The notes below the pieces were generated by a model. That model was not told where the DNA came from. It was given only the letters and a program-made list of their open reading frames with translations, and searched no databases. Position numbers and translations under genes: made by a program. A stretch of DNA of 64,000 nucleotides from contig VGZY01000002.1 in assembly GCA_016872355.1 (NCBI GenBank), positions 4,484 to 68,483 of the forward strand, written 5' to 3'. Below are positions 28,103 to 55,128 of this stretch, piece after piece (position 1 is the first letter of the stretch; each line of letters opens with the position of its first letter). This DNA is from SAR202 cluster bacterium. Its GTDB lineage: Bacteria > Chloroflexota > Dehalococcoidia > Lucifugimonadales > VGZY01.

Positions 28103-30085
28103 ATGGTGGCCTCCTTTTCGTGGCCCCGCCCCGTCACGGTCCCGGGAATACAGTCGTTCAGGGCCACAGAGGTCACGCCGCCTCCCGCCTGGGCGCTGAT
28201 GGAGCGCAGGCTCTTCAAGCTTATTGAAGAGTCTTGCGAGCTTGCCGCATCCAGGTACTCTCGGCCGGACGGCAACTGCTACGCAATCCACGATGTAGAC
28301 GACACCTACGAGAGCCGCTCGATGCGTGGCCTTTTTTATGCCATGGGCGGAAGCGACCGGATGCTGGAGATCGCATACCGCTCCTGGGAGTCCACGACGG
28401 CGCTCTACAGCGACGGCGTGGCCCGCAGGCCGGACGATCCTGCCTTCACGAACCCTCGGTTCAGGCCGCAGCTTCATAACGAGTACTATACGGACGCAGG
28501 CCCCTACGACTGGTTTCACATGGGGGAAGGAAACCAGTCTTTCTACGACTTCGGCCTGGCCGACCCCACTAACCCGCAGATGCACGCCCGCGCGCGCCGT
28601 TTTGCCGGCCTCTACCTGGGTGAGGACGCATCCGCGCCGAACTGGGACCCCGTTCACAAGATAATCCGCTCCACGTTTCACGGCTCTCTCGGACCCAAGT
28701 TCAAGATGGAGCCGGATAGGACCAGGTTGTACCTGGACCCGGTCTATGGAAAACCCGAGCAGAACCGGGGATACGCCCAGCGCACGAACCTGCATCCCGT
28801 AATCAAAGACCTGGACAATAACTGGTTTGACGACCCTGCGCGCCGCGAGGAGGTCTGCCGTCTCTTTGACGAGATTATCCTGAACGGCGATGTCCCGGAC
28901 AACCTCATCTGCACCGCCCTCATCACGAACGCGTACCTGTACACCGGTGATGACAAGTACAAGAAGTGGGTCCTGGACTACACTGAGGTCTGGTTGGAGC
29001 GCGCAAGGGCAAACGGCGGGATTATCCCCGACAACGTGGGGCCGACCGGAAAGACGGGTTAGAACCGCGGCGGGCAGTTCTGGGGCGGGCTGTACGGCTG
29101 GAACAGCCGCTGGTCCGGAGACCACATCATGATGGGGGCTGTCATCGCCTCCACCTGCTCGCTGCTCCTAACCGGGGACTATGGCTACCTGGAGCTGATC
29201 CCCGGCCAGATAGAGGCCCTCGTCAAGATGGGCAAGGTGCGCGAGGACGGCCACCTGCTCATACCAACCCGAATCACCGAGAAGGGCTGGACTGAGTACA
29301 AGACCTTGTGGGTGCGCGAGCTGGCGCACCTGTACCACGCATCGATGGCGCCGGGCGACCGCGACCTTTTCAACCGCCTCTACAAGGGTGACAAGGAGAG
29401 CAACTGGCGAGAGATCAGGCCTGAGCCGGACCGCCGGAGCGGGAACTCCGAGCGGGCGCGCTTCCTGTACTACGAGGGAAAGAACGCGGACTGGTCTGTG
29501 ACCATCCTTTCCTCCGAGTACGAGCAGGTGCTCAAGCAATTCGAGCTTATGGTCAATGACCCGCGGTCTACGGCGGAGATAGCCAGGGACAGCCGGTGGC
29601 CGGCCAACCCGTGTGTGGTGAAGGGCCTGACGCAGGTCACGATGGGCGCTCCGCAGACGATCTACAACGGCGGGCTGAACCGGGCTACCGTACGCTACTT
29701 CGATGCAGACCGCGCCCGCCCCGGCCTGCCGCCGGACGTTGCCGCACTGGTGGACAGCCTCGGCCGGGACCACGTGGGCGTCCACCTGGCAAACACCAGC
29801 CGCACCGAGACTCACCGCCTGATCATCCAGGCGGGAGCGTTTCGCGAGCACGAATTCACCCAGGTGGGGGTTGGGGATCCTGGGCTGGGGGCTGGCTCTT
29901 CTCTCCCCCCTCGGGGGAGAGATACAGAGAGGGGGTCTTCGCCCCCCCTCCAAGTCAACAGCAAGCACTTCGAGGTTGTCCTGCCGCCTTCCGCGAGCAT
30001 TCGGATCAACGCCGGGCTGAAGCGCTTCTCCAACAAGCCCAGCTACGCGTTCCCCTGGCATGGGGACAAGGCGCCGGTGATTTAG
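28103..30085 (+). pseudogene. paralogue 1 of the unrecognised ~650-700 aa family, interrupted by one in-frame TAG
   Basis: Track ORFs 28103..29062 and 29129..30085 are in the same frame and contiguous. TAG at 29060-29062 sits where the four other paralogues have Glu, in the motif GPTGK[IV]GE[KN]RNGQWWGG. Confidence 0.8.
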
Positions 30086-30110: not shown

Positions 30111-30142
30111 GTGTAGCTGCACAGCATGCTGTGCAGCTACAC
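30111..30142. terminator. perfect 32-nt palindrome between convergent genes
   Basis: GTGTAGCTGCACAGCA|TGCTGTGCAGCTACAC lies between the paralogue 1 stop (30085) and the corrected stop of the repeat protein (30174). Confidence 0.5.
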
Positions 30143-30173
30143 GGCCCGCACTCTTCCAGGCACCACGAGGCGG

Positions 30174-31650
30174 CTACGGCGCTCCGCCTGACGGCGTGTC
30201 CGTGAACCACAACGATTCAATGTAGAAAGGCGGCGGCACGTCCCGGCAGCCTCCTGCACAACCACTCGCGTGATAGTTGTGTTCGCGCCTCCGAGGTCGG
30301 CCAGCGGGATGCTTACCCAGTACCAGCCCTCCGGCCCGAGGTCAGCGTACTCGTTCATAGCGACGCGCCGTATTGTCCGCCCGTTCGCGTCCCGCATTGC
30401 CACGATCAGCTTCGGCAGCGGGCTGCCGTTGGGATTAATCACGAAGTCAAAGTGAGTATATGGCGTGGTGTTGAAGGTCGGCTTGCGAAGCTGCAGCCCC
30501 GCCCACCCCCTGTTAAACCTCACCTCCATCGACCTCCCGCCCGTGAGGACTGGCGACAGCGCCCTCGGGTCAACCTCCGCATCCCAGCTCCAGTTATCCC
30601 AATGAAGGTCCTCGTCGTAAACGAACCGATCGGTGGAAGGCCCCGGCGGCGCGCCTTCCAACCGCACGAAACGCAGGTCGTCGATATAGAAAGGCGACGG
30701 CGTTATGCCCGCCCCCTCCTGCACCACCACACCGGTGACTGTCCGGTCTCTCGCTCCGAGCTGTTCGAGCGGGATGGTGACCAGGTACCATCCGGCGCTC
30801 GTCGGCCGGGAAACCGCATATATGGATACACGATTGATCAGCCTGCCCGTGCTGTCTTTGAGGCCGATTCGCAAGTCAGGCAACGGGTCCCCATTCGGGC
30901 TGATAAAGAACTGCAGGTTCGAGTACGGCGTCGTGTCGAAGCTCGCCCTGTGAAGCTGCAGCCCGCCCCCAAGCCTGGTGAACATCACGCCAAGGGACTT
31001 CGTCCCCACGTAGACCGGAAACTGCGAGATGGGGTTCACGGTCGCGTCCCATCTCCAGTTGTCCCAGCGGAGCGACTCGTCGTACACGTCGTGCGCCCGC
31101 GACTGCGGATCGCTCGACCCGACGAAGCGCATGTCATCTACGAAGTAGGTTGGCTGCGCAGCCCCGGCGTTTTCCTGAATGGTCACCCGCGTGATGGTAG
31201 TGGCTACTGCGCCGAGCTCGTTCAGCGAAACTGCGACGGTGTACCAGCCGCCTGACGTTGGGTCCATGTAGATGCCGGCCGGATGCTCTTTATGATCCCC
31301 CCGCTGCTGTCGTGCAGCATGACGCGAAGATCCGGAAGCGGCCTACCTTTTGGATGGAGCGTGAACCGGAGGTGCGTGTACGGCCCGGCGTAGAACGGGG
31401 CCGGCGCATGGAACGATAGACCGGCCCAGGCCGCGTTGTGTGTCACGGCCATCGATCTGGAGCCTTCAAACACCGGCGATGTGCCGGCGGGGTCCACGGT
31501 CGTGTTCCAGCTCCAATTCTGCCAGTACGCCGCGTCATCGTAAACGACGCCCGAAGAGAAGTCCGCGCGCGCCGAATCGCCAATCGCCGCGGCCGCGAGC
31601 GCCGCCACTGCGAGCACTGCGGCGACCAGAGCCTTCGAAGTCCATCCCAT
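30174..31650 (-). pseudogene. secreted protein of three ~150-aa CBM-like beta-sandwich repeats, with two frameshifts
   Basis: Signal peptide MGWTSKALVAAVLAVAALAAAAIG. The repeats share VYDExLxWDNWSWD...TPY..L.F.I.P.G.PLP.L...L.D..G......GWY.V.IPL..LG....ItrVvvQE.AG...PFYIDD.RFV. One frameshift is near 31273-31282 (CCGGCCGG). A second near 30235-30245 restores ...QEAAG-VPPPFYIESLWFTDTPSGGAP* ending at 30174. The length of 1477 nt equals 493 codons minus 2 nt. Confidence 0.7.
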
Positions 31651-36447: not shown

Positions 36448-38397
36448 ATGCTTAACATGCCCTGCCTGCCTTTCGTAACTGCCACTCGACTGGCGCCGCC
36501 GCCCGGATGGGCGCTGCTGCAGCGCAAGCTGATGGACGTGATGGAAGAGGGCGCGGAGTACATGATCGGCAAGCACGCAGAGAACGGCGGCGTTATCACC
36601 TACGCTGACGACATGGACGACCTCTACGAGCAGGTGAACAACTGGGGCCTCTTCTATGCCATGGGCGCGAGCAAGAAAATACTCACGATGGCCCTGGAAA
36701 GCTGGAACGCCACGACACGGTTCCACGATAGGAGCATCAAGAGCCGCGTTCACCCCCGTTTCCACGCTTCCAGCCACAAGGAGTACTACAGCATCAACCA
36801 CCCCGGCGACGCCGAGTGGCACCACAAGGGCGAAGGCAACATGGCCTTCTACGACTTCGGAGTCGCGGACCCCACGATCTCGGAGAACGTCCGGAGGGCG
36901 CGCAGGTTCGCAGGCTACTACATCGGTGAGGACCCCGAGGCGCCGAACTGGGACCCGAAGTACAGAATACTTCGGTCGCCCGCGCAGTCCGGCGAGGGGC
37001 CCTGGCACAAGACGACGACGGAGTACACGCACTCTTACCTCCTCGGCGGCAAAGGGCTGGACTCGATTTCGTGGTACGGCGTGCGCTCAAGCCTCCAACC
37101 GTTCGTGAAGGACCTTGAGCCCACCTGGTGGAAGGACCCAAAGAGGCGCGATGAGATCAACGCTCTCTTCGAGAAGCTGGTGCTGAACACAGACTCCTCC
37201 AACAACCTGGCAGCGACGGCGCTGGTCACAAACGCCTACCTGTACACAGGCGACGAGAAGTACCGACGGTGGGTGCTGGACTACGTGGAGGCGTGGATAG
37301 ACCGCACGAAGCAGAACGGCGGCATCTTGCCTGACAACGTCGGCCCTACCGGCAAGGTGGGAGAGAACCGCAACGGACAATGGTGGGGCGGCCTGTACGG
37401 CTGGAACCACTACCAGGGTTACAACATCATGTTCCACGGCCTGGTCACGGCCGTGGAGTGCGCACAGCTCCTCAGCGGGGACTCGCGCTACCTGGAGCTA
37501 CTGCGTTCGCAGATCCGGATGCTGCTCTCCAACGGCAAGCGCAAGGACAACGGCCAGCTGGTCGTGCCCAACCGCTACACCGCCGAGGGCTGGGCCGCGT
37601 TCATGCCGATGCGGATCTTCGAGATCGCCCACCTCTACCACGGCTCGCTATCCAAAGAAGACTATGACCTGTTCTGCGAGATACGAGCGGGAGACGTGGA
37701 GCGCAACTGGAACGTTGTGGAGCCGACGCACGAGAAGAACCAGCAGCTGCGGGACGGCCACCAGCATATGGCCCGCTTCCAGTACTACGACGGCAAGAAC
37801 CCGGGCTGGCCGGAGCAGATACTCTCTGCTGAGTTCGTGACTGCCTCCGATGCCATCCGGCGGATGAAGGCCTACCCGGACGACATGCTCAAGCTAATCG
37901 AGAACAACGACTCCCCGGACAATCCCGTCGTCACCAAGGGCCTCACGCAGACGATGCTCGGGGCGCCGCAGTCCAACTACAACGGCGGCCTCCTGCGCGC
38001 GACGGTGCGGTACTTCGACGCCGACCGCGCACGCCCGGGCCTTCCCCCGGATGTTGCGGCGTTCGTGGACGAGATCAAGGACGACCAGGCCGGCATCCGG
38101 CTCGTCAACATGAGCATGGAGCGGGCCGCGAACGTGATCGTTCAGGCCGGCGCGTTCGGGGAGCACACGTTCACGGAGGTGCGGTACGGCGAGGACGATC
38201 CTTCGACAATCGACAGGAAGAAGGGGATTGGCCCGTCCGTAATCGAGCGCACCCTGCCCGTTCACGGCAAGCACTTCGCAGTGAGTCTTCCGCCCGGAAA
38301 GGCCCTGCGAGTGCAGGCCGGCATGAAGCGATTCTCCAGCAAGCCGTCATACGGTTTCCCGTGGCACGGCGAGAAGATACCGGCGCCGTTTCAATAG
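36448..38397 (+). CDS. paralogue 4 of the unrecognised family (649 aa)
   Basis: ATG is preceded by AAGAGG and lies 68 nt after paralogue 3. All family motifs are present. Confidence 0.8.
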   Translation: MLNMPCLPFVTATRLAPPPGWALLQRKLMDVMEEGAEYMIGKHAENGGVITYADDMDDLYEQVNNWGLFYAMGASKKILTMALESWNATTRFHDRSIKSRVHPRFHASSHKEYYSINHPGDAEWHHKGEGNMAFYDFGVADPTISENVRRARRFAGYYIGEDPEAPNWDPKYRILRSPAQSGEGPWHKTTTEYTHSYLLGGKGLDSISWYGVRSSLQPFVKDLEPTWWKDPKRRDEINALFEKLVLNTDSSNNLAATALVTNAYLYTGDEKYRRWVLDYVEAWIDRTKQNGGILPDNVGPTGKVGENRNGQWWGGLYGWNHYQGYNIMFHGLVTAVECAQLLSGDSRYLELLRSQIRMLLSNGKRKDNGQLVVPNRYTAEGWAAFMPMRIFEIAHLYHGSLSKEDYDLFCEIRAGDVERNWNVVEPTHEKNQQLRDGHQHMARFQYYDGKNPGWPEQILSAEFVTASDAIRRMKAYPDDMLKLIENNDSPDNPVVTKGLTQTMLGAPQSNYNGGLLRATVRYFDADRARPGLPPDVAAFVDEIKDDQAGIRLVNMSMERAANVIVQAGAFGEHTFTEVRYGEDDPSTIDRKKGIGPSVIERTLPVHGKHFAVSLPPGKALRVQAGMKRFSSKPSYGFPWHGEKIPAPFQ

Positions 38398-38418: not shown

Positions 38419-38443
38419 AGGTAAGGAATAATTCTCCTTACCT
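38419..38443. promoter_or_regulatory. 9-bp inverted repeat upstream of the antitoxin gene (operator or terminator candidate)
   Basis: AGGTAAGGA-ataattc-TCCTTACCT ends 18 nt upstream of ATG 38462, in an AT-richer patch. Confidence 0.35.
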
Positions 38444-38461: not shown

Positions 38462-38692
38462 ATGGTGGTGGCAAAAGTGACCAGCAAAGGGCAAGTAACT
38501 ATACCCAAAGATGTTCGCGAACGGCTTGGAATCGAGCCGGGGGATGAGATCGAGTTCGTCGAGAGTGACGGCGAAATCAAGGTCGCTAAACATTTCACCG
38601 GATCCCCATTCGACAAGTTCGTGGGCTACTTGAAGCACCTCAAGGGGAGGACCACGGACGAGCTCATTGAGGAGATGCGTGGGGAGAGATGA
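38462..38692 (+). CDS. AbrB/SpoVT-MazE family antitoxin (VapB-like)
   Basis: KVTSKGQVTIPKDVRERLGIEPGDEI is a SpoVT-AbrB swapped-hairpin motif. ATGA overlap with the toxin gene. Confidence 0.8.
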   Translation: MVVAKVTSKGQVTIPKDVRERLGIEPGDEIEFVESDGEIKVAKHFTGSPFDKFVGYLKHLKGRTTDELIEEMRGER

Positions 38693-39177
38693 TAACGGCC
38701 CTGGATACGAATATCATCCTTGATATCGTAGTCCCCGACACGGCGGACGTCCGAACTTCAAAAGCCCTTCTGGAAAGGGCCGGTAGAGAGGGCGCCCTCG
38801 TGATCTGCGAGGTCGTATATGCGGAGGTGGCTGCCCGCTTTCAGGATGGTTCGGCGTTGGACTTTTTCATGCAAGAAACCCGGATTCGCCTGTCAGCCAG
38901 CACGCCAGAGGCATTGGCGGAAGCGGGAGTTGCCTGGACGAAGTTTGCGTCAAACCGGAGGCGCAAAGTGCAGTGCGGCTCTTGCGGACGAGAACAAGAC
39001 ATCGTCTGCATCGATTGCTCCCAAACAATCAGCTTCCGCCAACGAGTTCTCGCAGACTTTCTCATTGGTGGCCATGCGTTGCTACAGGCCGACCGCCTGT
39101 TAACTCGTGACCAGCGTTACTTTCGCACATACTTTGCAACACTCAAATTGGGGCCGGAGCTCGACCCCTCAAACTAG
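38689..39177 (+). CDS. PIN-domain toxin (VapC-like) with an inserted CxxC...CxxC segment
   Basis: ALDTNIILD (first acidic residue), EVVYAEV and LADFLIGGHALLQADRLLTRD are PIN motifs. The insert reads VQCGSCGREQDIVCIDCSQ. At 162 aa it is longer than the typical ~130-aa VapC. Confidence 0.75.
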   Translation: MITALDTNIILDIVVPDTADVRTSKALLERAGREGALVICEVVYAEVAARFQDGSALDFFMQETRIRLSASTPEALAEAGVAWTKFASNRRRKVQCGSCGREQDIVCIDCSQTISFRQRVLADFLIGGHALLQADRLLTRDQRYFRTYFATLKLGPELDPSN

Positions 39178-39208: not shown

Positions 39209-40261
39209 ATGTCCCGACCCTATGCCCTGCTTCGTGCGGGATTCCCGTACTACAAGACGATCGGAGCGCGCGGGAGGACAATCCTGCCTAACGACATGAC
39301 CATTGCGCCGGACGGCACCATCTACACGCTGTGCCAGGGCACCAACTACGGCAAGGGCAACCCCGGGCCGATCTACATCACTAACCTTGAAGACGAGTAC
39401 ATCGGCAGCATGGCGTGGCGGAACGCCCAGTACGGGCCGTATGGCCACTGCCAGTTCCACTGGCCCTGCCAGATCGTTATCGACGGCAAGAATCGGCTGT
39501 TTTGCTCGGACCAGGCCTTCGACTACCTGCAGGTCTTCAACAGGGACGCCGAGTATCTTGGCCGGTTTGGAGAGGCCGGGACCGGCCCCGGCCAGTTCAA
39601 CCGTCCATCGGGCCTTGCCGTGGACGCTCAGGATAACCTGTACGTCGTCGACTCTCTCAACCACCGCATCCAGAAGTTCGACAAGAATGGGCGTTTTGTT
39701 TCAATGTTCGGCTCGCTCGGCTCGGAGCCAGGCCAGTTCAACATGCCGTGGGGCACCCACGTGGACAGCGAGCACGACGAGATCTACGTGGCAGACTGGC
39801 GCAACGACCGCGTTCAGGTCTTCGATATGAACTGGGAGTTCCAGTTCCAGTTCGGAGAGTCCGGCAGCGGAAAGGGGCAGCTCAACAGGCCAATGGGCAT
39901 AGCCGTGGACAAAGATGGCGACATCTACGTGTGTGACTGGGGCAACAACAGGGTGCAGCTATTCGACAAGACGGGACGCTATATCCAGCAGTTCCTCGGA
40001 GACGCCACGCTCTCCAGGCAGGAGATCGAGGTCTACCTGAGGCGGCACTCGGCCAAGCAGAACCGGTTGAGGATTGAGGCTGACAACGAGCAGGAGAAGC
40101 TCTTCGCCGGCCCGCGCTCCGTGCGGGTGGACTCCGAGGGCCACATGTTTGTGGTGGAGGCCGACCACTACCGCATCCAGGTGTACAAGAAGCAGGCCAT
40201 TGTTCTCACGGAAATGGACGTGGCCCCGCCCCTCAAAGTCCCCACGATGAACCAGAACTAG
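39209..40261 (+). CDS. NHL-repeat beta-propeller protein, no signal peptide
   Basis: Repeated units of the type NRPSGLAVDAQDNLYVVDSLNHRIQKFDKNGRF, FNMPWGTHVD..IYVADWRNDRVQVFD and LNRPMGIAVDKDGDIYVCDWGNNRVQLFD. Confidence 0.85.
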   Translation: MSRPYALLRAGFPYYKTIGARGRTILPNDMTIAPDGTIYTLCQGTNYGKGNPGPIYITNLEDEYIGSMAWRNAQYGPYGHCQFHWPCQIVIDGKNRLFCSDQAFDYLQVFNRDAEYLGRFGEAGTGPGQFNRPSGLAVDAQDNLYVVDSLNHRIQKFDKNGRFVSMFGSLGSEPGQFNMPWGTHVDSEHDEIYVADWRNDRVQVFDMNWEFQFQFGESGSGKGQLNRPMGIAVDKDGDIYVCDWGNNRVQLFDKTGRYIQQFLGDATLSRQEIEVYLRRHSAKQNRLRIEADNEQEKLFAGPRSVRVDSEGHMFVVEADHYRIQVYKKQAIVLTEMDVAPPLKVPTMNQN

Positions 40262-40292
40262 AGACGACTCGGAACGGCAGGAGAGTTGGACC

Positions 40293-41705
40293 ATGCCCAT
40301 GAAAAAGCTCACAGACTCCCAGATGAGGGACTTCGTGCGGAATGGCTTTGTAAGGGTGCAGACGGCCCTGCCGCCCGAGTTCCACCGGGAGATCTTCAGG
40401 GCATCGGAAGAGCTGAACAAAGAGGGCAACCCGGGGAACAACCTGCTGGCCAAAGTGCCGGCCATGCAAAAAATCTACGACGATCCCGGCGTCGCGGGGG
40501 CGCTCGCCAGCATCCTGGGCGACGACTACTTCATGCAGCCTCACCGCCACATGCACTTCAACCCTCCAGGCAGCCCCGGCCAGACAATGCACAAGGACTC
40601 GTTCACCCGCCGCAGACACCACACTCGCTGGATGGTCACTTTCTACTTCCCCCAGGACACGACGGTTGAGATGGGGCCGACGGGCGTAGTGCCCGGCAGC
40701 CACTACTTCAACAAGTACAACCCGGAGACGGACACGCCCGAAAGCTTCATGGCCGGCCCAGCAGGCAGCGTTGTGATCGCGAACTACGATGTGTGGCACC
40801 GCGCGACGCCTAACCGTAGCCAGAAGAACCGGTATATGCACAAGTACCTCTTCACCCGCATGTCGGAGCCCACCGCTCCGAGCTGGCGGAGCACGGGCGA
40901 TGCCTGGGTTGCAAAGAAGGGCGACCAGCACACCGCCATGTGGTCGCACATGTGGGACTGGCACTACGGCAAGCTGTCAAAGGGCAGGGCCGGCACCCTT
41001 GAGATGAGCGAAAAGGAGATCAGGCAGAAGGTGGCGGCGCTTTCAAACGACTCTGAGCGCGTCGCATTCGACGCCGCGTACACGCTGGCGAAGGTGGGCG
41101 AAAAAGCCGCCCGCCCGCTGGTGAAGCTACTGAGCGACGGGTCCGCCGAAAAGTGGTACACCGAGCTGACCCGCAGGCCGCCCGGGCAGACATCGCCGTC
41201 CGCGAACGCAAGCTATGCCCTGATGGCGATGGGCGCCCCTGCCGTCCCTTTGCTGGTCGACCTCGCCTCCAGCCGCAATATGTGGAACCGAGCGAGCGCG
41301 GTCGTTACACTGATGGACATCGGGCCGGCCGCGAAGGCCTCAGTCCCGGCCATTGCTGCGGCGCTCAAAGACGATTCTCCGCTTGTGCGCCAGTTCGCAG
41401 CGGAGGCTATGGGCACGGTAAGCCAGGGGACGTCGAAAGGCGTTGCGGCCCTCGTCCCTGCCCTCAAGGACCAGGATGAGACCGTGCGCAGGTTCGCAGC
41501 GCTCTCACTGGCGAAGATCGGCCCCCATGCAAAAGGGGCCACGAAGGCGCTAATTTCGTCCCTGGGCGACAGCAATCGTTATGTCGTCGGCAACGCCCTC
41601 CACGCCCTGCACCGGATCGATACGGCCGAATCGCGCGAGGCGGTGCTCGCCCACCTGTTCACTGCGCGCTGGGACCGCCTGACGACGAAGACATCGCTAT
41701 ACTAG
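40293..41705 (+). CDS. phytanoyl-CoA dioxygenase (PhyH) family Fe(II)/2OG oxygenase fused to C-terminal HEAT repeats
   Basis: N-terminal ~220 aa carry the MHKDS (HxD) and WHRATPN motifs. The C-terminal ~230 aa carry PBS-lyase/HEAT-like repeats (LKDDSPLVRQFAAEAMG, LKDQDETVRRFAALSLAKIG, LGDSNRYVVGNALHALHRI). Confidence 0.75.
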   Translation: MPMKKLTDSQMRDFVRNGFVRVQTALPPEFHREIFRASEELNKEGNPGNNLLAKVPAMQKIYDDPGVAGALASILGDDYFMQPHRHMHFNPPGSPGQTMHKDSFTRRRHHTRWMVTFYFPQDTTVEMGPTGVVPGSHYFNKYNPETDTPESFMAGPAGSVVIANYDVWHRATPNRSQKNRYMHKYLFTRMSEPTAPSWRSTGDAWVAKKGDQHTAMWSHMWDWHYGKLSKGRAGTLEMSEKEIRQKVAALSNDSERVAFDAAYTLAKVGEKAARPLVKLLSDGSAEKWYTELTRRPPGQTSPSANASYALMAMGAPAVPLLVDLASSRNMWNRASAVVTLMDIGPAAKASVPAIAAALKDDSPLVRQFAAEAMGTVSQGTSKGVAALVPALKDQDETVRRFAALSLAKIGPHAKGATKALISSLGDSNRYVVGNALHALHRIDTAESREAVLAHLFTARWDRLTTKTSLY

Positions 41706-41734
41706 ACGGACTAAATCTAATTCAGGACTCACTC

Positions 41735-42568
41735 ATGCCACACGTTTACGGAAGCTCGGCGACGGCGCAGTCAAAGTACACCGCCAAGCGCGCGGCAGGG
41801 CCGATCAAGATCGACGGCAAGCTGGACGAGCCCTCGTGGAAGCTGGCGCAGAAGTCGACACGCTTCGTGGACCTCGTCACCGGCCAGCCTGTGGAGCACG
41901 ACACCCGCGCTGCCGTCCTGTGGGACGACGACTACCTGTACGTGGGCTTCTGGGTGGAGGAGCCGGACGTTCGCGGCACGCTGACGGAGCGCGATTCGTT
42001 CATCTGGAACGACAACGACGTCGAGGTCTTCATCGACGGCGGAGACACGTACTACGAGTTCGAGATGAACTCGCTCGGGACCGTCCTGGAGATCTTCTGG
42101 ATCTGGAAGGATGTGTACAAGCGCGGCGGTAAGTTCGATATCCCCGAGTTCGACCTCTTCGGCGGCAACGTCTGGGTCCTGAACGGGCTGGACGGCCGCA
42201 AGCACCCGCGCGGCGCGCGCTGGGGCTTCCTGGACTGGGACATGAAGGGGCTCAAGACGGCGATTCACATCGACGGCACGCTGAACAAGCGCGACGACAC
42301 GGATAAAGGCTGGACGGCGGAGATCGCGTTCCCCTGGAAAAGCATGAAGTGGCTGGCGAACGGCCGCTCACTGCCGCCCAAAGAGGGCGACGTGTGGCGT
42401 ATCGACTTCTCCCGCTTTCAGCAGTACGACAAGGAGACGAAGCCGCTCCCGAGCTGGGTGGTCAAGGACAGCCCCGGCTGGGTGTGGAACATGCACGGCC
42501 TCTACGACTCCCACATCCCGGAGTGCTTCGTGCAGGTGAGCTTCAGCGAGAAGTCCGTGGGGAAATAA
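41735..42568 (+). CDS. CBM9/DOMON-like carbohydrate-binding-fold protein, no signal peptide
   Basis: IKIDGKLDEPSWKLA...AVLWDDDYLYVGFWVEEPD...NDNDVEVFIDG...YYEFEMN is the CBM family 9-like pattern. Confidence 0.6.
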   Translation: MPHVYGSSATAQSKYTAKRAAGPIKIDGKLDEPSWKLAQKSTRFVDLVTGQPVEHDTRAAVLWDDDYLYVGFWVEEPDVRGTLTERDSFIWNDNDVEVFIDGGDTYYEFEMNSLGTVLEIFWIWKDVYKRGGKFDIPEFDLFGGNVWVLNGLDGRKHPRGARWGFLDWDMKGLKTAIHIDGTLNKRDDTDKGWTAEIAFPWKSMKWLANGRSLPPKEGDVWRIDFSRFQQYDKETKPLPSWVVKDSPGWVWNMHGLYDSHIPECFVQVSFSEKSVGK

Positions 42569-42578
42569 CCGGTCCCCT

Positions 42579-42661
42579 GTAGCCCGCGCGATTCATCGCG
42601 CCCGTCGTGCTCGCCAGGGTCGCCCGTTGGCGACCCGTGCGCGATGAATCGCGCGGGCTAC
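42579..42661. mobile_element. 83-nt MITE/REP-like element, copy A
   Basis: Perfect 23-nt terminal inverted repeats GTAGCCCGCGCGATTCATCGCGC (42579-42601) and GCGCGATGAATCGCGCGGGCTAC (42639-42661). They surround a 37-nt core with its own hairpin GGGTCGCC-cgtt-GGCGACCC. Confidence 0.7.
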
Positions 42662-42784
42662 AAGATGACCGCCGCACCTCCATTCAACTATGCCTACCCT
42701 CCTTTGACAACCTTCGTTATCCCCTGATACCCTGCCACCGCAACGACGGCCCGCTCGAAATATTCACCACCGTGGAGGCATCCC

Positions 42785-44881
42785 TTGCCCGCCAACAAGC
42801 CCATCTCCATCCCCGGCATAGCAACCATTACCGCCAGCCGGATCACTCCTCCGCCCGCGTGGGCCGTATTGGAGCGGCAGCTCATAACGACGATGGAAAA
42901 GGGCGTGGAGGTCTTTAACGAGAAGTACACGACGCCCGACGGTAACATGCACTTCATCTACGACGTGGATGACGTGTTCGAGAGCCGCGTCAACCGCGGC
43001 CTCCTCTACTCGGTGGGCGGAAGCAGCAAGTTCAAGGACCTGGCGATCCGCGAGTGGAACGCGACGGCCCGCTTTTACAGCGAAGAGTTCAAGCCCTCGC
43101 CTGTGGAGCAGCACCCTCACCTGTCCGCAAAGCCGGACATCCTCTCCCAGGGGGAGAGGAGTAATCGGTGGAAGCCGGGTTCTATCCATCCCATGTATAT
43201 GGCCCAGCTCCACAACGAGTTCTGGACGCTCGCGATCCCATTCAACGCGGACTGGTTCCACATCGGCGAAGGGCTGCAGTCGTTCCACGAGCTGCCGCTG
43301 GTCGACCCGACCATTGAAGAGAACATCCGGCGCGCCAGGCGGTATGCCTCGTTCTACAACGGCGAGGACCCGAGCGCGCCGAACTACGACCCGAAGCACA
43401 AGATCATCCGCTCCCCCTTCGGAGGCAGCAAGGGGCCAATGCTCCGGGCCATCGACGCTCCGCCGATGGTGCACGAGGGCGGCTACGTCTCGAACGCGAT
43501 GGACCTGGCGCGGTACTTCCTCGACCCCGCGTCGTACGGCGACTTCGGCCACCGTCGCGGCGTCGCCAGCAAGCCGAGCGCAGGGAAGCTGATGACTCCG
43601 CTGTACCCCATCGTCAAAGAGCTTGAGCCCAACTGGTTCGAAGACCCGAAACGCCGGGACGAAATCCTGCGACTGTTCGAAGACATTGTCCTCAACGGCG
43701 ACGAGCCGACGAACCTCCCCTGCACGGGCCTGATGGCAATGGCGTACATGTACACAGGCGAGGACAAGTACCGCCAGTGGGTTGAGGACTACGTAGGCGC
43801 GTGGATTGACCGCACGAAGAAGAACGGCGGAATTATGCCGGACAACATTGGCCCCACCGGCAAAATAGGCGAAAAGCGCAACGGCCAGTGGTGGGGAGGC
43901 ATGCACGGCTGGAACCGCCGCGGCGGTTGCGACCGCATGTTCACGGCGATCGCGATCGGCGTGGAGGCAGCGACGCTCGTCAGCGGGGATACAGGCTACC
44001 TGGACCTGCTCAGGTCGCAGCTGCGCCTGCTGCTGGACAACTCCATCAAGCGCGAAGACGGCCAGCTACTGCTGCCGAACAGGTACGGCCCCGAAGGGTG
44101 GGCGGAGCATCGCCCATGGACGATCAAGGAGTTCGTGCACCTCTTCAACGCATCGCAAAAGCCCGAGGACTACCAGATGATAGCGATGCTGCGGGAAGGC
44201 AACCGCACAGCTGACTGGAACGACGTGCCGTCCGGGCCGGACCCCAAGGGCGGTCGCACGGACACGGGCCGTTTCCAGTATTACGACGGCAAGCTGGCGG
44301 ACTGGCCGGAGCGGCTCGTGGAGGCGGAGATACAGTTCTCCCAGACGGTCACGAGCAGCTTCGTCAACGACCACCGCTCGCTTGAGCAGATACTGGAAGA
44401 CAACATCTGGCCGGCGAACCCGCTCGTGATGAAGGGGCTGACGCACCTGGTCACAGGCGGCCCGCAGCACCTGTACAACGGCGGCCTTCAGACCGGCAGC
44501 ATACGCATCTTCGACCCCGATCGCGCGCGGCCCGGCATGCCGGAGGACGTGGGCGTACTGGTGGACGAGATAAAGGCCGACCGCACGGGTGTGCAGCTCG
44601 TCAACCTGGACCCAGTAGAGTCCCGCCGCGTCATTGTGCAGGGTGGCACGTACGGGGAGCACCAGTTTACTGACGTAAGCTACACAGAGACGGACCGCAA
44701 CTGGACCGGGACGAATCCGGGGACGTGGATTCGGGCAAAGGCCACCAGCACGGACCGCTCCGTGCCCGTTAACAATAGCTATTTCGAGGTAGTCCTGCCG
44801 CCCGCGACCGGAATTCGCGTGAGCGCCGGCATGAAGCGGTACGCTAACAAGCCGTCGTACGCGTTCCCGTGGACTAGGTAG
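42785..44881 (+). CDS. paralogue 5 of the unrecognised family (698 aa)
   Basis: TTG start is preceded by GGAGG at 7-nt spacing. All family motifs are present (GPTGKIGEKRNGQWWGG, SYAFPW). It has an extra insert after the first third. Confidence 0.75.
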   Translation: MPANKPISIPGIATITASRITPPPAWAVLERQLITTMEKGVEVFNEKYTTPDGNMHFIYDVDDVFESRVNRGLLYSVGGSSKFKDLAIREWNATARFYSEEFKPSPVEQHPHLSAKPDILSQGERSNRWKPGSIHPMYMAQLHNEFWTLAIPFNADWFHIGEGLQSFHELPLVDPTIEENIRRARRYASFYNGEDPSAPNYDPKHKIIRSPFGGSKGPMLRAIDAPPMVHEGGYVSNAMDLARYFLDPASYGDFGHRRGVASKPSAGKLMTPLYPIVKELEPNWFEDPKRRDEILRLFEDIVLNGDEPTNLPCTGLMAMAYMYTGEDKYRQWVEDYVGAWIDRTKKNGGIMPDNIGPTGKIGEKRNGQWWGGMHGWNRRGGCDRMFTAIAIGVEAATLVSGDTGYLDLLRSQLRLLLDNSIKREDGQLLLPNRYGPEGWAEHRPWTIKEFVHLFNASQKPEDYQMIAMLREGNRTADWNDVPSGPDPKGGRTDTGRFQYYDGKLADWPERLVEAEIQFSQTVTSSFVNDHRSLEQILEDNIWPANPLVMKGLTHLVTGGPQHLYNGGLQTGSIRIFDPDRARPGMPEDVGVLVDEIKADRTGVQLVNLDPVESRRVIVQGGTYGEHQFTDVSYTETDRNWTGTNPGTWIRAKATSTDRSVPVNNSYFEVVLPPATGIRVSAGMKRYANKPSYAFPWTR

Positions 44882-44952: not shown

Positions 44953-45726
44953 GTGTCTGTGGAATCACTTGCAGGCGCCGCCAACGCGTTCGGCGGCTTT
45001 GTTGTGAGCCCTGAAGCTCTGCCTACTGAGCCGGAGCTTTTCCGTCGCAAGCTCGCCTTTTCAATCGAAGCGTGGCGGCAAGAGGGCTACAAGCTGGTCT
45101 GGCTTGAACTGCCGATCAGTCGCGCCAGGCTGGTGCCTATTGCGGCGGACCTTGGCTTTTCGTACCACCACGCAGGCGAAGGGTACCTGATGATGACCTG
45201 CCGGCTGGTGGAAACGGCGTTCATACCGGCGTATGCGACGCACTACATCGGCGCGGGCGGCGTTGTTCTTAACGACCGGCGGGAGCTGCTCGTGGTGAGG
45301 GAGAAGCGCGGCGGCAAACAGGGAATCCCGAGCAACTTCAAGCTGCCGGGCGGCGCGCTTCACGCAGGCGAGCATCTGGTGGACGGGGTAATTCGAGAGG
45401 TGCTGGAGGAGACGGGCATAAAGACCAGGTTCCAGTCGCTCGTCAGCCTGCGGAACCAGCACGGCTACCGGTACGGCAAATCGGACATCTACTTCGTGTG
45501 CCGCCTTGAGCCTCTCTCCAACGAAATATGCAAGCAGGAAGACGAAATCGAAGAGTGCCGGTGGATGTCTGTGGACGACTACCTGGGGATTGATAGCGTG
45601 AGCATCTTCAACAAGAGCATCGTTCGCGCCGCTATCGAAAACCCTGGGCTCTCGCCCCGTGTGCTTGACGGCTACGGCCGCGACCCGACGAAGATCGAGA
45701 TATTCTTCCCCCGCAACCCGCAGTAG
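44953..45726 (+). CDS. Nudix hydrolase with an N-terminal accessory domain
   Basis: Nudix box GGALHAGEHLVDGVIREVLEETGI. The GTG start is uncertain. Confidence 0.8.
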   Translation: MSVESLAGAANAFGGFVVSPEALPTEPELFRRKLAFSIEAWRQEGYKLVWLELPISRARLVPIAADLGFSYHHAGEGYLMMTCRLVETAFIPAYATHYIGAGGVVLNDRRELLVVREKRGGKQGIPSNFKLPGGALHAGEHLVDGVIREVLEETGIKTRFQSLVSLRNQHGYRYGKSDIYFVCRLEPLSNEICKQEDEIEECRWMSVDDYLGIDSVSIFNKSIVRAAIENPGLSPRVLDGYGRDPTKIEIFFPRNPQ

Positions 45727-46562: not shown

Positions 46563-47792
46563 TCACTCCCACTGGGGACCGCCGGCAGCCACCCTGGCGT
46601 GCATGGCCGCGAACTCCTTCGAGCCGTCGTCGAACCAGTATTCGAAGTCCGCGCCGCGGACCGTTCCTTCTTCCCATCCGGTTATCCGGGTGAGGTCCGG
46701 GTTGGACGGTGTGTACAGCTTCTTGCCGCCCGGCATGTATGTGATGCCAAGCCGGCGGGTGGTCGCCTGCGGGCGCGGCGCGGAAAGTCGCTTGATAGCC
46801 GCTTCGTCCACATTCACACCGAGCCCGGGACCTTCCGGCACGGGAGAAAAGCCTTCGATTATCGGGATCTTCTTCGTGGCCACGTCGTCATCGCACTGGT
46901 CCTCCAGGTTGATCGAGTGTCCGGTCGCGCTCGGCAGGACGGCCGCCATGTGGAGAGCAAGGGCCTTACCGAGCGTGCCGCCCGTCATCTGCATTATGGT
47001 CTGAATGTTCGCCCTCGAGTAGAGGTTGCCTCTCGACAGGGTGTCACCGATGCTGCATGTGGGGTACCCGTCCCCGATCATATAGATGTCTGCAACGCCT
47101 GTCAGGGCTTCCTGGTAGCCGCTCAGAGGATTCTTGTGCATGACGATAGGGATGCGCGACTTTTCCCTGAGCCTGCGCCAGTCATCCAGAGCGTGATTTG
47201 GGAACGGGTCTTCAATAAACCCGACGATAGGGTGCTGCTCCATGCGATTGACCAGGTCAAGGACGCCCCCCATAGTCCGGTTGCCGTTGAAATCGAAGTG
47301 GAGCTTGAAGCCCGGAGGCGCAACCTCCTCGGCCATGCGAATGTGCTCCATCACGTCCCAGAAGCCGCGCATGTGCATCTTGAAGACCATGTAGCCCAGC
47401 GCCACTGCCCGCTTTATCTCTTCGCGGTACAGCGCCGGCGTGCACGAGCCGGTCCATGCGGCGACGGTAACTCCGTCCCTCACCTTCTGTCCCATCAGCT
47501 TGTAGGCAGGCACCTCGAGGTACTTGCCCATCACGTCGTAGAGCGTCATGCCAAGACCGGGATTGAAGTTGTTGTTCAGAAAGTCGAAGGGGTTGCGGTC
47601 TACAATTCGGTCAAGCTTCGGCTCCTTCTGCCTCGCGCCTTCCCAATCGTAGTCCCCGTAGCCAACGATCCCGTTATCGGTGGTTACCCGATAAAACATC
47701 CGGGAGTAGTAGTCGTGAGTTCGGCCGTGCGATTTGTAACGCTCAGCGATCCTGGGGTATATCGGAAACGAATCAATATTGACAATTTTCAA
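46563..47792 (-). CDS. enolase superfamily (mandelate racemase/muconate lactonizing enzyme family) protein
   Basis: Capping domain plus barrel with KMH, the LHFDFNGN region and IEDP metal-ligand motifs. TTG start. Confidence 0.8.
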   Translation of the reverse strand: MKIVNIDSFPIYPRIAERYKSHGRTHDYYSRMFYRVTTDNGIVGYGDYDWEGARQKEPKLDRIVDRNPFDFLNNNFNPGLGMTLYDVMGKYLEVPAYKLMGQKVRDGVTVAAWTGSCTPALYREEIKRAVALGYMVFKMHMRGFWDVMEHIRMAEEVAPPGFKLHFDFNGNRTMGGVLDLVNRMEQHPIVGFIEDPFPNHALDDWRRLREKSRIPIVMHKNPLSGYQEALTGVADIYMIGDGYPTCSIGDTLSRGNLYSRANIQTIMQMTGGTLGKALALHMAAVLPSATGHSINLEDQCDDDVATKKIPIIEGFSPVPEGPGLGVNVDEAAIKRLSAPRPQATTRRLGITYMPGGKKLYTPSNPDLTRITGWEEGTVRGADFEYWFDDGSKEFAAMHARVAAGGPQWE

Positions 47793-52646: not shown

Positions 52647-53747
52647 TTGCTAAAGCCCTTCATGGTAGACCCCTCACAGGCGATCAGGGTCAAGGAGCAG
52701 CTGCTCCGCGAGACCGTTTCCGCCATCTTCCGAAAGATGAATGTGACGGCGGACGACGCCGACATCGCAACCGACGTGCTCGTGGCGGCAGACCTCCGCG
52801 GCGTGGAGAGTCACGGAGTATCGAACATGCTCCGCCTGTACGTCCGCGGCTATCGGCTGGGGGAGCTTAACGCGCGTCCCAACTGGCGCGTCCTGAGAGA
52901 AACGCCGTCCACGGCGAACATCGAGTCGGACGCGGGCCTCGGCATTATCCTTGTGCCGAAGGCGATGGAAATGGCCATAGAAAAGGCGAAAAAGGTCGGC
53001 ATGGGGGTGGTGACGCTCCGCAACGGGCGGCACCTGGGTATGGCCTCGTACCACGCGATGATGGCGCTGAAACACGACATGATAGGTATGTGCATGACAT
53101 CGTGCCCGGTGTACGTTGTGCCGACTTTCGGCGCGGAGGCGCGCCTTGGCACCAACCCCATCGCCATTGCCGCGCCTGCGAACAAAGAGGTGCCGTTTGT
53201 CTTTGACGCGGCGATGAGCACAATCCCCGGCAACAAGCTCAGCCTGGCCAACCGCCTCAAATCGCAGCTCATGCCCGGCTGGGTGGCCGCACCTGACGGC
53301 ACCCCGATCATGGAGTACTCACCTGCTCCCCCGCTCGGGGCGGACGGCATACCGCAGGCCTACCTCCTCCCCCTCGGCAGCACTCGCGAGCTGGGATCGC
53401 ACAAGGGGTACGGCCTCATAGCGATGGTGGACATTCTCGGTGGCGTACTGTCCGGCGGCGGGTACGGTCTTGTGCCCGGCCGGCCGAACTTCGGCCACTA
53501 TGTAGCCGCCTACAGTATCGAAGCGTTCATGGATACGCTGGAGTTCAAGGACAAGATGGACGAGTTCCTCACGATGCTGAGGACGACGAAGACCGCTCCC
53601 GGCCACGACCGTGTGATTTACGCCGGCATCCTGGAGGCGGAGGCGATGGCCGACCGCAAGGCCAACGGCATACCCTACCACCCCGAAGTGATTGAGTGGT
53701 TCAAGGGCATCTGCAGGGAGCTGGGGATTGCGTACAACCTGACCTAA
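52647..53747 (+). CDS. Ldh_2 family (malate/L-lactate/sulfolactate/ureidoglycolate-type) dehydrogenase
   Basis: ADLRGVESHGV, GRHLGMASYH and GSHKGYGL motifs. The TTG start is preceded by AGGAGA at 8-nt spacing. Confidence 0.8.
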   Translation: MLKPFMVDPSQAIRVKEQLLRETVSAIFRKMNVTADDADIATDVLVAADLRGVESHGVSNMLRLYVRGYRLGELNARPNWRVLRETPSTANIESDAGLGIILVPKAMEMAIEKAKKVGMGVVTLRNGRHLGMASYHAMMALKHDMIGMCMTSCPVYVVPTFGAEARLGTNPIAIAAPANKEVPFVFDAAMSTIPGNKLSLANRLKSQLMPGWVAAPDGTPIMEYSPAPPLGADGIPQAYLLPLGSTRELGSHKGYGLIAMVDILGGVLSGGGYGLVPGRPNFGHYVAAYSIEAFMDTLEFKDKMDEFLTMLRTTKTAPGHDRVIYAGILEAEAMADRKANGIPYHPEVIEWFKGICRELGIAYNLT

Positions 53748-53880: not shown

Positions 53881-55050
53881 TTGAGAGACTTACTTGGGAG
53901 ACGCACCCTCTTGAACCGCCCGCTGAAGATCACTCTCATTGCCGCCGCCTCGCTGGCCGCGCTGCTGAGCTGTGGCCTCCTCGCGGGGGCGTGGTACGTA
54001 TCGGGCATCCTCAAGCACGACGGGCTGATCGTGAGGGATGGTCCGCCAGTGTACGACCTCGCGGTGGTAGCCGTGGACACTGACTCTATACGCCTTCGCA
54101 CGTCCGAGCTGACAGGCGACGCCATCCGGTGGAAGACTGCGGGCGAATCGGGCTTCAGGGAGAGAATGACTACGGCAGGGTTCGGGACGATTCTTGAGCT
54201 CACCGACTCCGAAGTTGAACGAGAATTCGAGCAGGTGCACGGAACGTTCGAGCCCGGAGACCGGGTCCGCATCGATAGGTTCACATACGACAACGATCCC
54301 CTGACGGCGCTTGGACTGGGGTACCAGGACGTCGAGTACGCGTCACCATTTGGCAGCTTCCCCGTGTGGTACTTCCCCGGGAGCCGCGACACGTGGGTCG
54401 TATTCGTCCACGGCAGAACGGCCAACCGCGAGGAGGCCTACCGCATGCTCCCGACTGTGCTGGACATGGGCTTCCCGGCTCTGGTCATATCGTACCGCAA
54501 CGACCCCGACGGCATCGCCACCGAGAAGCGCCTCTACGAGTTCGGCCAGACGGAGTGGGAGGAGCTCGAAGGCGCAGTGAAGTACGCCACAGACAATGGC
54601 GCTGAGGATGTGGTGCTCGTCGGCTTCAGCATGGGCGGAGCAATAGTGACGAACTTCATGTACCAGTCCGACCGCACGAAGGACGTCCGCGCTCTGGTCA
54701 TGGACTCGCCGATGCTCAACTTCAACGCGACTGTGGACAAGGGAGCGGAGGACCGCGGGCTGCCGGGGCCGTTCGCCTGGCTCGCAAAGTACGTGGCGCA
54801 GGTGCGGTTCGGCGTGCATTGGGGAAAGCTGGACTACCTGAGGGACGTGGACAGGCTGGAGGCGCCGATCCTCCTCTTCCATGGCGACGCGGATGAGACG
54901 GTGCCAAAGTCCACGAGCGACGCGCTGGCGGCGGCACGGCCGGACATCGTGACATACATCGAAACGCCCGGCGCGACGCACGTGGGGTCGTGGAACGTGG
55001 ACAGAGCGCGGTACGAGGCGGCGGTGCGGGAATTCCTCAGCAAACCGTAG
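53881..55050 (+). CDS. membrane-anchored alpha/beta hydrolase
   Basis: N-terminal TM helix (ITLIAAASLAALLSCGLLAGAWYV), nucleophile elbow GFSMGG and late FHGDADETV. The TTG start is uncertain. Confidence 0.7.
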   Translation: MRDLLGRRTLLNRPLKITLIAAASLAALLSCGLLAGAWYVSGILKHDGLIVRDGPPVYDLAVVAVDTDSIRLRTSELTGDAIRWKTAGESGFRERMTTAGFGTILELTDSEVEREFEQVHGTFEPGDRVRIDRFTYDNDPLTALGLGYQDVEYASPFGSFPVWYFPGSRDTWVVFVHGRTANREEAYRMLPTVLDMGFPALVISYRNDPDGIATEKRLYEFGQTEWEELEGAVKYATDNGAEDVVLVGFSMGGAIVTNFMYQSDRTKDVRALVMDSPMLNFNATVDKGAEDRGLPGPFAWLAKYVAQVRFGVHWGKLDYLRDVDRLEAPILLFHGDADETVPKSTSDALAAARPDIVTYIETPGATHVGSWNVDRARYEAAVREFLSKP

Positions 55051-55128
55051 CCCGCGCGATTCATCGCGCCTGTTTCGTTCACAAGCCATGGCCGTCAGCA
55101 ACCCGGGCGCGATGAATCGCGCGGGCTA
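55048..55128. mobile_element. 81-nt MITE/REP-like element, copy B (same termini as 42579..42661)
   Basis: TAGCCCGCGCGATTCATCGCGCC (55048-55070) and GGCGCGATGAATCGCGCGGGCTA (55106-55128). The core differs from copy A. The terminal TAG and CTA are the stop codons of the hydrolase and of proS. Confidence 0.7.

Follow-up and report, generated by a model that had tools for sequence, protein, structure and literature searches.

Enzymes of the PhyH family, including phytanoyl-CoA 2-hydroxylase (PAHX), PHYHD1, KanJ, SptF, and FtmOx1, are Fe(II)/2-oxoglutarate (2OG) oxygenases, and PHYHD1-type relatives have recently been found to demethylate 2'-O-methyl nucleosides (PMC12709175). Short HEAT repeats of the HEAT_PBS/alphaRep type are present in the bilin lyases CpcE and CpcF, in NblB, and in DOHH; the latter sets a precedent for a hydroxylase that contains HEAT repeats. 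Six-bladed NHL β-propellers are known from the TRIM-NHL proteins (TRIM71/LIN-41, TRIM2/3, and Brat) and from the sensor domain of PknD, and CBM9 modules, such as that of Thermotoga maritima Xyn10A, are part of a secreted glycosidase. In a 64,000-nt stretch of contig VGZY01000002.1 from a SAR202 cluster bacterium (hereafter, the window; all coordinates are window positions), three adjacent genes encode an NHL propeller, a PhyH oxygenase fused to HEAT repeats (PhyH-HEAT), and a CBM9-like protein, and this trio lies within a series of paralogous DUF8034 genes. The proteins of the window are identical to entries of a SAR202 cluster bacterium metagenome-assembled genome (locus tags FJ319_008xx). 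We consider it fairly probable (roughly 0.6) that the trio is a lineage-specific juxtaposition of three independently distributed cytosolic families within a SAR202 DUF8034 island (GlmS...DUF8034...Nudix), which is syntenic with related Dehalococcoidia, that PhyH-HEAT is an active oxygenase, and that the NHL and CBM9-like genes were added to the island later.

Domain structure and distribution of the PhyH-HEAT protein

The open reading frame (ORF) of PhyH-HEAT (40293-41705, + strand; maximal ORF) encodes 470 aa. The oxygenase occupies approximately residues 1 to 235 and is followed by approximately six to seven HEAT/PBS-lyase-type repeats (approximately residues 240 to 455) and, last, by a conserved C-terminal tail. 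Both parts had been recognized in the first-pass annotation of this DNA, and the profile matches agree with it: residues 24 to 180 match Pfam PhyH (PF05721; 2.9e-13, 51 bits versus a gathering score of 22), and the approximately 230 aa described as HEAT/PBS-lyase-like match HEAT_2 (5.7e-21, 75 bits versus 27.7), HEAT (41 bits), and HEAT_PBS (28.6 bits). In the PDB, the C-terminal half is most similar to designed alphaRep proteins (2.5e-45), with eight matched stretches. This half was also considered as a phycobilin lyase, and this was rejected because the NCBIfam scores were 24.0 versus 330 (CpcE), 23.4 versus 220 (CpcF), and 22.8 versus 300 (NblB). PhyH-HEAT gives a weak match to DOHH (PDB accession number 4d4z); however, the HEAT repeats of DOHH themselves bind the di-iron center, whereas catalysis in PhyH-HEAT is assigned to the separate PhyH domain.

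In an alignment of 22 sequences, with homologues at 47 to 53% identity, the HxD motif (H100 and D102 in MHKDS) and the distal histidine (H169 in WHRATPN) that had been picked out by the first-pass annotation are present and invariant, and R180, 11 residues past H169, is invariant as well. Loss of the Fe/2OG ligands on alignment, which had been raised there as a possible objection, is thus not observed. H100, D102, and H169 line up with the triad region of SptF. We take R180 to be the equivalent of Arg275 of PAHX, a ligand of the 2OG C5 carboxylate, and by this analogy R180 is likely the 2OG-binding arginine of PhyH-HEAT. Because the Fe/2OG ligands are retained, PhyH-HEAT looks catalytically competent, and its 2-His-1-carboxylate iron site is intact. 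The residues H84, R85, H88, Q97, H109, R112, and N174 are also invariant in this alignment, and the basic cluster that some of them form near the HxD motif (H84, R85, H88, H109, and R112) suggests an anionic substrate.

When the profile of the N-terminal domain was compared with solved structures, SptF was the best match (2e-5), and DhiD, KanJ, PHYHD1, and FtmOx1 were also found; all are small-molecule PhyH-type oxygenases. PhyH-HEAT resembles the PhyH/PAHX family in its Pfam match, its HxD...H ligands, and the arginine at +11, whereas its similarity to the characterized members is marginal (best E = 2e-5), and its own motifs (EGNPGNN, PHRHxH, and YYPQDT) set the subfamily apart. In addition, the HEAT domain of approximately 230 aa and the conserved tail (RWCPxTTxESLY) are absent from the characterized enzymes.

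The fusion had been regarded as an unusual architecture, and this view does not survive a wider search, i.e., PhyH-HEAT belongs to a large full-length family with at least 590 relatives in GTDB species representatives (one genome per species), most of them from Poribacteria, SAR202/Dehalococcoidia, and Latescibacterota. A homology search retrieved 421 protein clusters (clustered at 90% identity), of which the 120 best matches span the entire fusion (401 to 510 aa) at 45 to 53% identity. The best 79 of the at least 590 loci are from Poribacteria (52), Dehalococcoidia/Chloroflexota (21), Latescibacterota (4), and unclassified bacteria (2), and many of these 79, as far as the isolate names tell, come from sponge or coral holobionts. 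The proteins are named "hypothetical" or "HEAT repeat domain-containing protein" by NCBI, and a literature search found no paper on PhyH+HEAT fusions. PhyH-HEAT is a widespread, uncharacterized oxygenase architecture of approximately 460 aa within the known PhyH superfamily, and the gene in the window is another member.

The general expansion of PhyH genes in Poribacteria is documented and unexplained (PMC3909097). Tandem PhyH-HEAT duplicates, 1 to 3 kb apart, are present on Poribacteria chromosomes (loci L012, L019, and L028). The recurrent neighbors of PhyH-HEAT in this phylum are a divergent aminotransferase, a second plain PhyH, a short-chain dehydrogenase/reductase (SDR), and efflux genes, mostly on the opposite strand. 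These genes were considered as universal partners of PhyH-HEAT and were judged to reflect within-phylum synteny. Distant homologues of a 481-aa ORF of the window (16929-18374), which has no Pfam or NCBIfam match, are encoded within 10 kb of PhyH-HEAT in four loci (L002, L044, L071, and L072; 25 to 29% identity over approximately 90 to 100% of the length).

The neighboring NHL and CBM9-like proteins

The NHL ORF (39209-40261; 350 aa) and the CBM9-like ORF (41735-42568; 277 aa) are, like that of PhyH-HEAT, maximal ORFs on the + strand. The layout given in the first-pass annotation is exact, with intergenic gaps of 31 and 29 nt, and the trio does lie between the fourth and fifth DUF8034 paralogues (36448-38397 and 42785-44881). 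It had been called a tight three-gene unit, and the short gaps are real; however, they are ordinary operon spacing and statistically unremarkable, and the 5' boundary is arbitrary because a PIN gene (38689-39177) likewise ends only 31 nt upstream of the NHL ORF. Shine-Dalgarno sequences precede the trio genes (GGGAGGTGA in the case of the NHL start), and no terminator-like site was found on the + strand inside the trio. The three genes are probably co-transcribed, judging from their arrangement. A long palindromic stem-loop just 3' of the CBM9-like stop codon (42577-42662, + strand; RNA minimum free energy of -74.5 kcal/mol, z = -8.97) probably marks where the transcription unit ends on its 3' side. 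The palindrome occurs once more at approximately 55045-55131, between the convergent genes 53881-55050 (+) and 55126-56826 (-). Its 24-bp stem (GTAGCCCGCGCGATTCATCGCGC ...) is the same at both sites and only the loop differs, and the palindrome could be an element similar to repetitive extragenic palindromes (REP) or miniature inverted-repeat transposable elements (MITE), or a bidirectional terminator.

None of the three proteins can carry a classical leader, as had been noted. Within the first 60 residues, the maximum Kyte-Doolittle hydropathy of a 15-residue segment is 0.41 for the NHL protein, 0.23 for PhyH-HEAT, and -0.06 for the CBM9-like protein; each ORF as listed opens at the first possible start codon, and an in-frame stop is located 3 nt before the ATG of the NHL gene. 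The absence of leaders had been considered anomalous on the premise that NHL and CBM9-like domains mostly reside outside the cytoplasm. This premise is weak, since the best NHL matches are intracellular proteins (TRIM71, TRIM2/3, and Brat) and most members of the CBM9-like family are leaderless.

The predicted β-propeller of the NHL protein is borne out by Pfam NHL (1.2e-32, 110.7 bits versus a cut-off of 20). The sequence itself shows six blades, with an insert of approximately 33 aa between blades 5 and 6, and the NCBI product name is "6-bladed beta-propeller." The best match in a PDB sequence search is the NHL domain of TRIM71 (1.3e-60), with weaker matches to those of TRIM2/3 and Brat. Because these best solved relatives are intracellular, a cytosolic location of the NHL protein is not anomalous. 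Similar to the TRIM-NHL propellers and the PknD sensor domain, the protein has six blades; unlike them, it is a single-domain, bacterial, cytosolic protein without RING, B-box, or kinase context, and it carries the insert between blades 5 and 6. Identification as ScyF of scytonemin biosynthesis was rejected (NCBIfam equivalog, 184.7 bits versus a cut-off of 350). A PEP-CTERM sorting signal was not found, as the protein has no C-terminal hydrophobic segment (maximum 19-residue hydropathy of 0.61). No NHL orthologue group could be resolved among 141,684 representative-library matches, which are swamped by giant multi-NHL proteins; the top matches are 1,000 to 7,600 aa long.

The CBM9/DOMON-like fold proposed for the third protein is supported by Pfam CBM9_1 (2.4e-10, 41 bits versus 23.4) and by an AlphaFold2 (AF2) model with a predicted local distance difference test score (pLDDT) of 92.2, for which Foldseek gives a probability of 1.0. 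The matched structures are BACUNI_03838 (4jpq), CBM9 structures (1i82, from T. maritima Xyn10A, and 7nwn), the γ subunit of ethylbenzene dehydrogenase, and NxrC. The protein shares the β-sandwich with 1i82, 4jpq, the dehydrogenase subunit, and NxrC at a target-normalized template modeling (TM) score of up to 0.75, whereas its identity to solved structures is 10 to 17%, it is approximately 60 to 90 residues longer than these, and it is a stand-alone cytosolic protein and not a module of a secreted glycosidase. Its family is large (4,357 clusters matched, the top 120 at 54 to 63% identity), and the named members include Bryobacteraceae and Kouleothrix. A minority of the homologues have leader-like N-termini, and most do not. 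Approximately 40 columns are invariant among 48 sequences, mostly Asp, Glu, Arg, His, Trp, and Tyr, including W63-D64, D95-x-E97, Y106-Y107-E108, H157-x-R159, and H260-x-P262; such conservation suggests that the protein has a specific site for binding or catalysis and is not a generic module. On the other hand, neither Met nor Lys is invariant in these 48 sequences, which argues weakly against Met/Lys heme ligation of the kind presumably used by the γ subunit of ethylbenzene dehydrogenase, and the protein is unlikely to be a heme-binding DOMON domain. NCBI names the protein in the window "polyhydroxyalkanoate depolymerase," a name for which no support was found in Pfam, NCBIfam, the PDB, the fold search, or the literature; its homologues are named "carbohydrate-binding family 9-like protein."

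Conservation of the trio was examined in 83 loci anchored on PhyH-HEAT and 80 metagenomic loci anchored on the CBM9-like gene, with flanks of up to 10 kb, using tblastn and phmmer with the window proteins. No NHL homologue was found in any of the 83 or the 80 loci. None of the 83 PhyH-HEAT loci contains a CBM9-like orthologue (a single 28-bit match falls in an unrelated 690-aa ORF), and neither PhyH-HEAT nor DUF8034 homologues occur in the 80 CBM9-like loci. Neighbor clustering also revealed no conserved partner of the CBM9-like family in these 80 loci, the most frequent neighbor being a LysA-like gene (9/80). Since the trio families are found together only in this SAR202 bacterium, the three proteins probably do not make up a dedicated enzyme complex. 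The first-pass annotation had proposed such a complex, in which the NHL, PhyH-HEAT, and CBM9-like proteins would form a cytosolic hydroxylase that oxidizes a polymer (protein or polysaccharide) and is tied to the paralogue family. The tight co-directional spacing with Shine-Dalgarno sequences, the native composition of all three genes, the binding-type folds of HEAT, NHL, and CBM9, and the carbohydrate-enzyme-like fold of the DUF8034 neighbors would all fit this proposal. Nevertheless, we regard it as very improbable: no two of the families co-occur in the 163 anchored loci, each does well without the others in hundreds to thousands of genomes, and the NHL and CBM9-like genes are missing from relatives that share the syntenic island. 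A trio that is not conserved in other genomes had been named in the first-pass annotation itself as grounds for giving up the proposal, and this is what the 163 loci show.

The DUF8034 island of the SAR202 cluster

The window contains five DUF8034 paralogues between 28103 and 44881, and the label DUF8034 (PF26099) is taken from precomputed annotations only. These proteins have no match in local Pfam or NCBIfam copies and no meaningful PDB match by sequence profile, and nothing on DUF8034 was found in a literature search. Paralogue 5 (42785-44881, + strand) is 43% identical to paralogue 4 (36448-38397, + strand) over the full length. In the AF2 model of paralogue 4 (pLDDT of 91.3), an (α/α)6 barrel is followed by a C-terminal β-sandwich. 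Foldseek remotely but consistently matches this model with AGE/cellobiose 2-epimerases, YihS, GH76, and the GH127 enzyme HypBA1 at a probability of approximately 1.0. The architecture of barrel and β-sandwich, as well as the length, is similar to that of GH127; however, in comparison with the six-hairpin carbohydrate enzymes as a whole (AGE/YihS, GH76, and GH127), no PDB match is found at the sequence level and the TM scores are low. The DUF8034 family comprises more than 1,400 clusters in SAR202, Poribacteria, and other large genomes, with an invariant R-x-G-Q-W-W-G-G motif, and all copies are leaderless. It was located in the window and in the loci L002, L006, L007, L078, L165, and L166.

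Paralogue 1 (28103-30085) is interrupted by one in-frame TAG (29060-29062), which falls at a near-invariant glutamate of the family (GENRNGQWWGG), consistent with a change of GAG to TAG. Past the TAG, the reading frame is kept, and the sequence shares 46% identity with paralogue 4. The stop is a recent pseudogene mutation, a sequencing error, or a read-through site.

The linkage of PhyH-HEAT to the paralogue family that had been suggested is only partly confirmed. DUF8034 is the one conserved neighbor of PhyH-HEAT, and the two lie immediately next to each other in six loci (L002, L003, L006, L007, L008, and L078), all of them from Chloroflexota. Among the representatives, the adjacency is found in 4/21 Chloroflexota, 0/52 Poribacteria, and 0/4 Latescibacterota. 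The gene order Cmk-PlsC-GlmS-PhyH-HEAT-DUF8034 is common to L002, L006, L007, and L008, while in L078 divergent DUF8034 genes are located upstream of PhyH-HEAT. As in the window (44953-45726), the island ends with a Nudix gene in L003 and L006, and the window also has the same Cmk-PlsC-GlmS start, at 19.3 to 22.7 kb. Because of this shared start and end, the window is read from its gene order as an expanded and rearranged version of the syntenic SAR202 island, one that has gained NHL, CBM9-like, VapBC, and other genes. In the poribacterial locus L165, a DUF8034 gene is flanked by plain PhyH genes, which were considered as HEAT-less relatives of PhyH-HEAT. This was rejected, as the two genes show only generic superfamily similarity to its catalytic domain (hhalign probabilities of 87%, at 26% identity, and 1.5%), and they add no support for a link between PhyH and DUF8034.

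The G+C content at third codon positions (GC3) of the trio genes is 0.83 to 0.91, like that of host genes, and that of the DUF8034 paralogues is 0.80 to 0.91. Just upstream of the trio, a VapBC-type pair consists of a MazE/AbrB-like antitoxin (38462-38692, + strand; Pfam MazE_antitoxin 7.5e-16; GC3 of 0.68) and the PIN toxin (38689-39177, + strand; Pfam PIN 1.5e-7; GC3 of 0.63), which overlaps the antitoxin by 4 nt. Because of this difference in GC3 (0.83 to 0.91 versus 0.63 to 0.68), the trio is compositionally native, whereas the VapBC pair is, by its composition, a foreign insertion; acquisition of the trio as a horizontal cassette was considered and rejected, and this origin was accepted for the VapBC pair only.

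These features bear on a further possibility, namely, that the close packing merely reflects gene density in a rearranged island and that none of the three proteins interacts with DUF8034. The absence of conserved linkage for the NHL and CBM9-like genes, the dynamic nature of the region implied by the toxin-antitoxin insertion upstream and the nonsense-interrupted paralogue, and the occurrence of PhyH-HEAT beside DUF8034 in just four of the 21 Chloroflexota representatives are in line with such a view. We nonetheless hold it to be distinctly unlikely, because the gaps of 29 to 31 nt without a predicted terminator or promoter argue for co-transcription and because the PhyH-HEAT/DUF8034 adjacency recurs in both co-directional and divergent arrangements at approximately 50% protein identity.

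Two additional features of the window were observed. A palindrome, GGTAAGGA..TCCTTACC, is located at approximately 38421-38443, upstream of the VapBC pair, and could be an operator. Between paralogues 1 and 2, a minus-strand ORF (30137-31545) contains internal repeats of approximately 90 to 180 aa, with an extra repeat copy at 31282-31545 before the called start (tblastn), and has no Pfam or NCBIfam match.

Possible functions of PhyH-HEAT

In the reading that we prefer, the juxtaposition of three independently distributed families in a DUF8034 island, PhyH-HEAT is most likely an active cytosolic enzyme of the Fe(II)/2OG type, either a hydroxylase or an oxidative demethylase, and the HEAT solenoid would most likely be a built-in platform that binds the substrate or a partner. 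A plausible role of the enzyme in the SAR202 clade is to supply or modify the substrates of the adjacent DUF8034 enzymes. The context would be the cytosolic catabolism of carbohydrate-like organic matter, because the (α/α)6 barrels of DUF8034 resemble sugar epimerases or glycosidases. Such a role fits the sugar-acid-type genes nearby, i.e., an enolase-superfamily gene (46563-47792) and Ldh_2 (52647-53747), and the expanded paralogue families that SAR202 is reported to have (PMC5395668). The NHL and CBM9-like proteins would not be obligate partners of the oxygenase but later additions to the island, and any cooperation among them would be at most lineage-local.

Several points weigh against this reading. 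In the tail of the PhyH-HEAT protein of the window, the near-invariant Cys461 is replaced by Asp. The closest sampled homologue is only 53% identical, and the conservation of the trio was judged at that distance. Co-transcription was deduced from gene spacing alone, and the fold matches of DUF8034 are remote (Foldseek E of approximately 3e-4, TM scores of 0.2 to 0.5). In Poribacteria, PhyH-HEAT and DUF8034 are on the same chromosomes but megabases apart, and PhyH-HEAT has different neighbors (an aminotransferase, an SDR, and another PhyH); the coupling with DUF8034 may for these reasons be local to one clade, or fortuitous. Moreover, the data are compatible with either a small-molecule or a macromolecular target of PhyH-HEAT.

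With regard to the target, PhyH-HEAT might instead modify a protein, e.g., hydroxylate a conserved cytosolic protein docked by the HEAT solenoid, independently of the neighboring genes. HEAT/alphaRep-type repeats are typical protein-binding scaffolds, the gene is independent of context across phyla, full-length conservation is high (45 to 53% identity across three phyla), and the tail is conserved, all of which would suit such a role. However, the nearest solved catalytic relatives (SptF, KanJ, PHYHD1, and FtmOx1) all act on small molecules, and the phyletic distribution is patchy. The tandem duplicates and the PhyH expansion in Poribacteria (PMC3909097) also agree better with a set of catabolic enzymes that have diversified than with one housekeeping modifier. 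We therefore consider a protein-modifying role unlikely, although it deserves consideration. A more far-reaching proposal is that PhyH-HEAT enzymes form a new class among the bacterial Fe(II)/2OG oxygenases, one that acts on macromolecules, in which the HEAT solenoid captures a protein or an anionic polymer (e.g., a sulfated or acidic glycan) and which cooperates in SAR202 with DUF8034 in an unrecognized cytosolic pathway that oxidizes recalcitrant carbohydrate-like matter. This proposal is speculative, and we give it little credence; if it were true, the class would number at least 590 proteins, found mainly in SAR202, Latescibacterota, and Poribacteria associated with sponges and corals.

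The trio itself matters little, being an arrangement of one lineage that was correctly observed but is ordinary. PhyH-HEAT, on the other hand, is an architecture that is common, conserved over its full length, and uncharacterized, and the lineages that carry it (Poribacteria, SAR202, and Latescibacterota) are known to degrade organic matter that is recalcitrant or comes from a host. For DUF8034, the predicted model points to an (α/α)6 fold similar to that of sugar epimerases and GH127. Together, PhyH-HEAT and DUF8034 are a concrete pair of biochemical targets for the carbon metabolism of SAR202.

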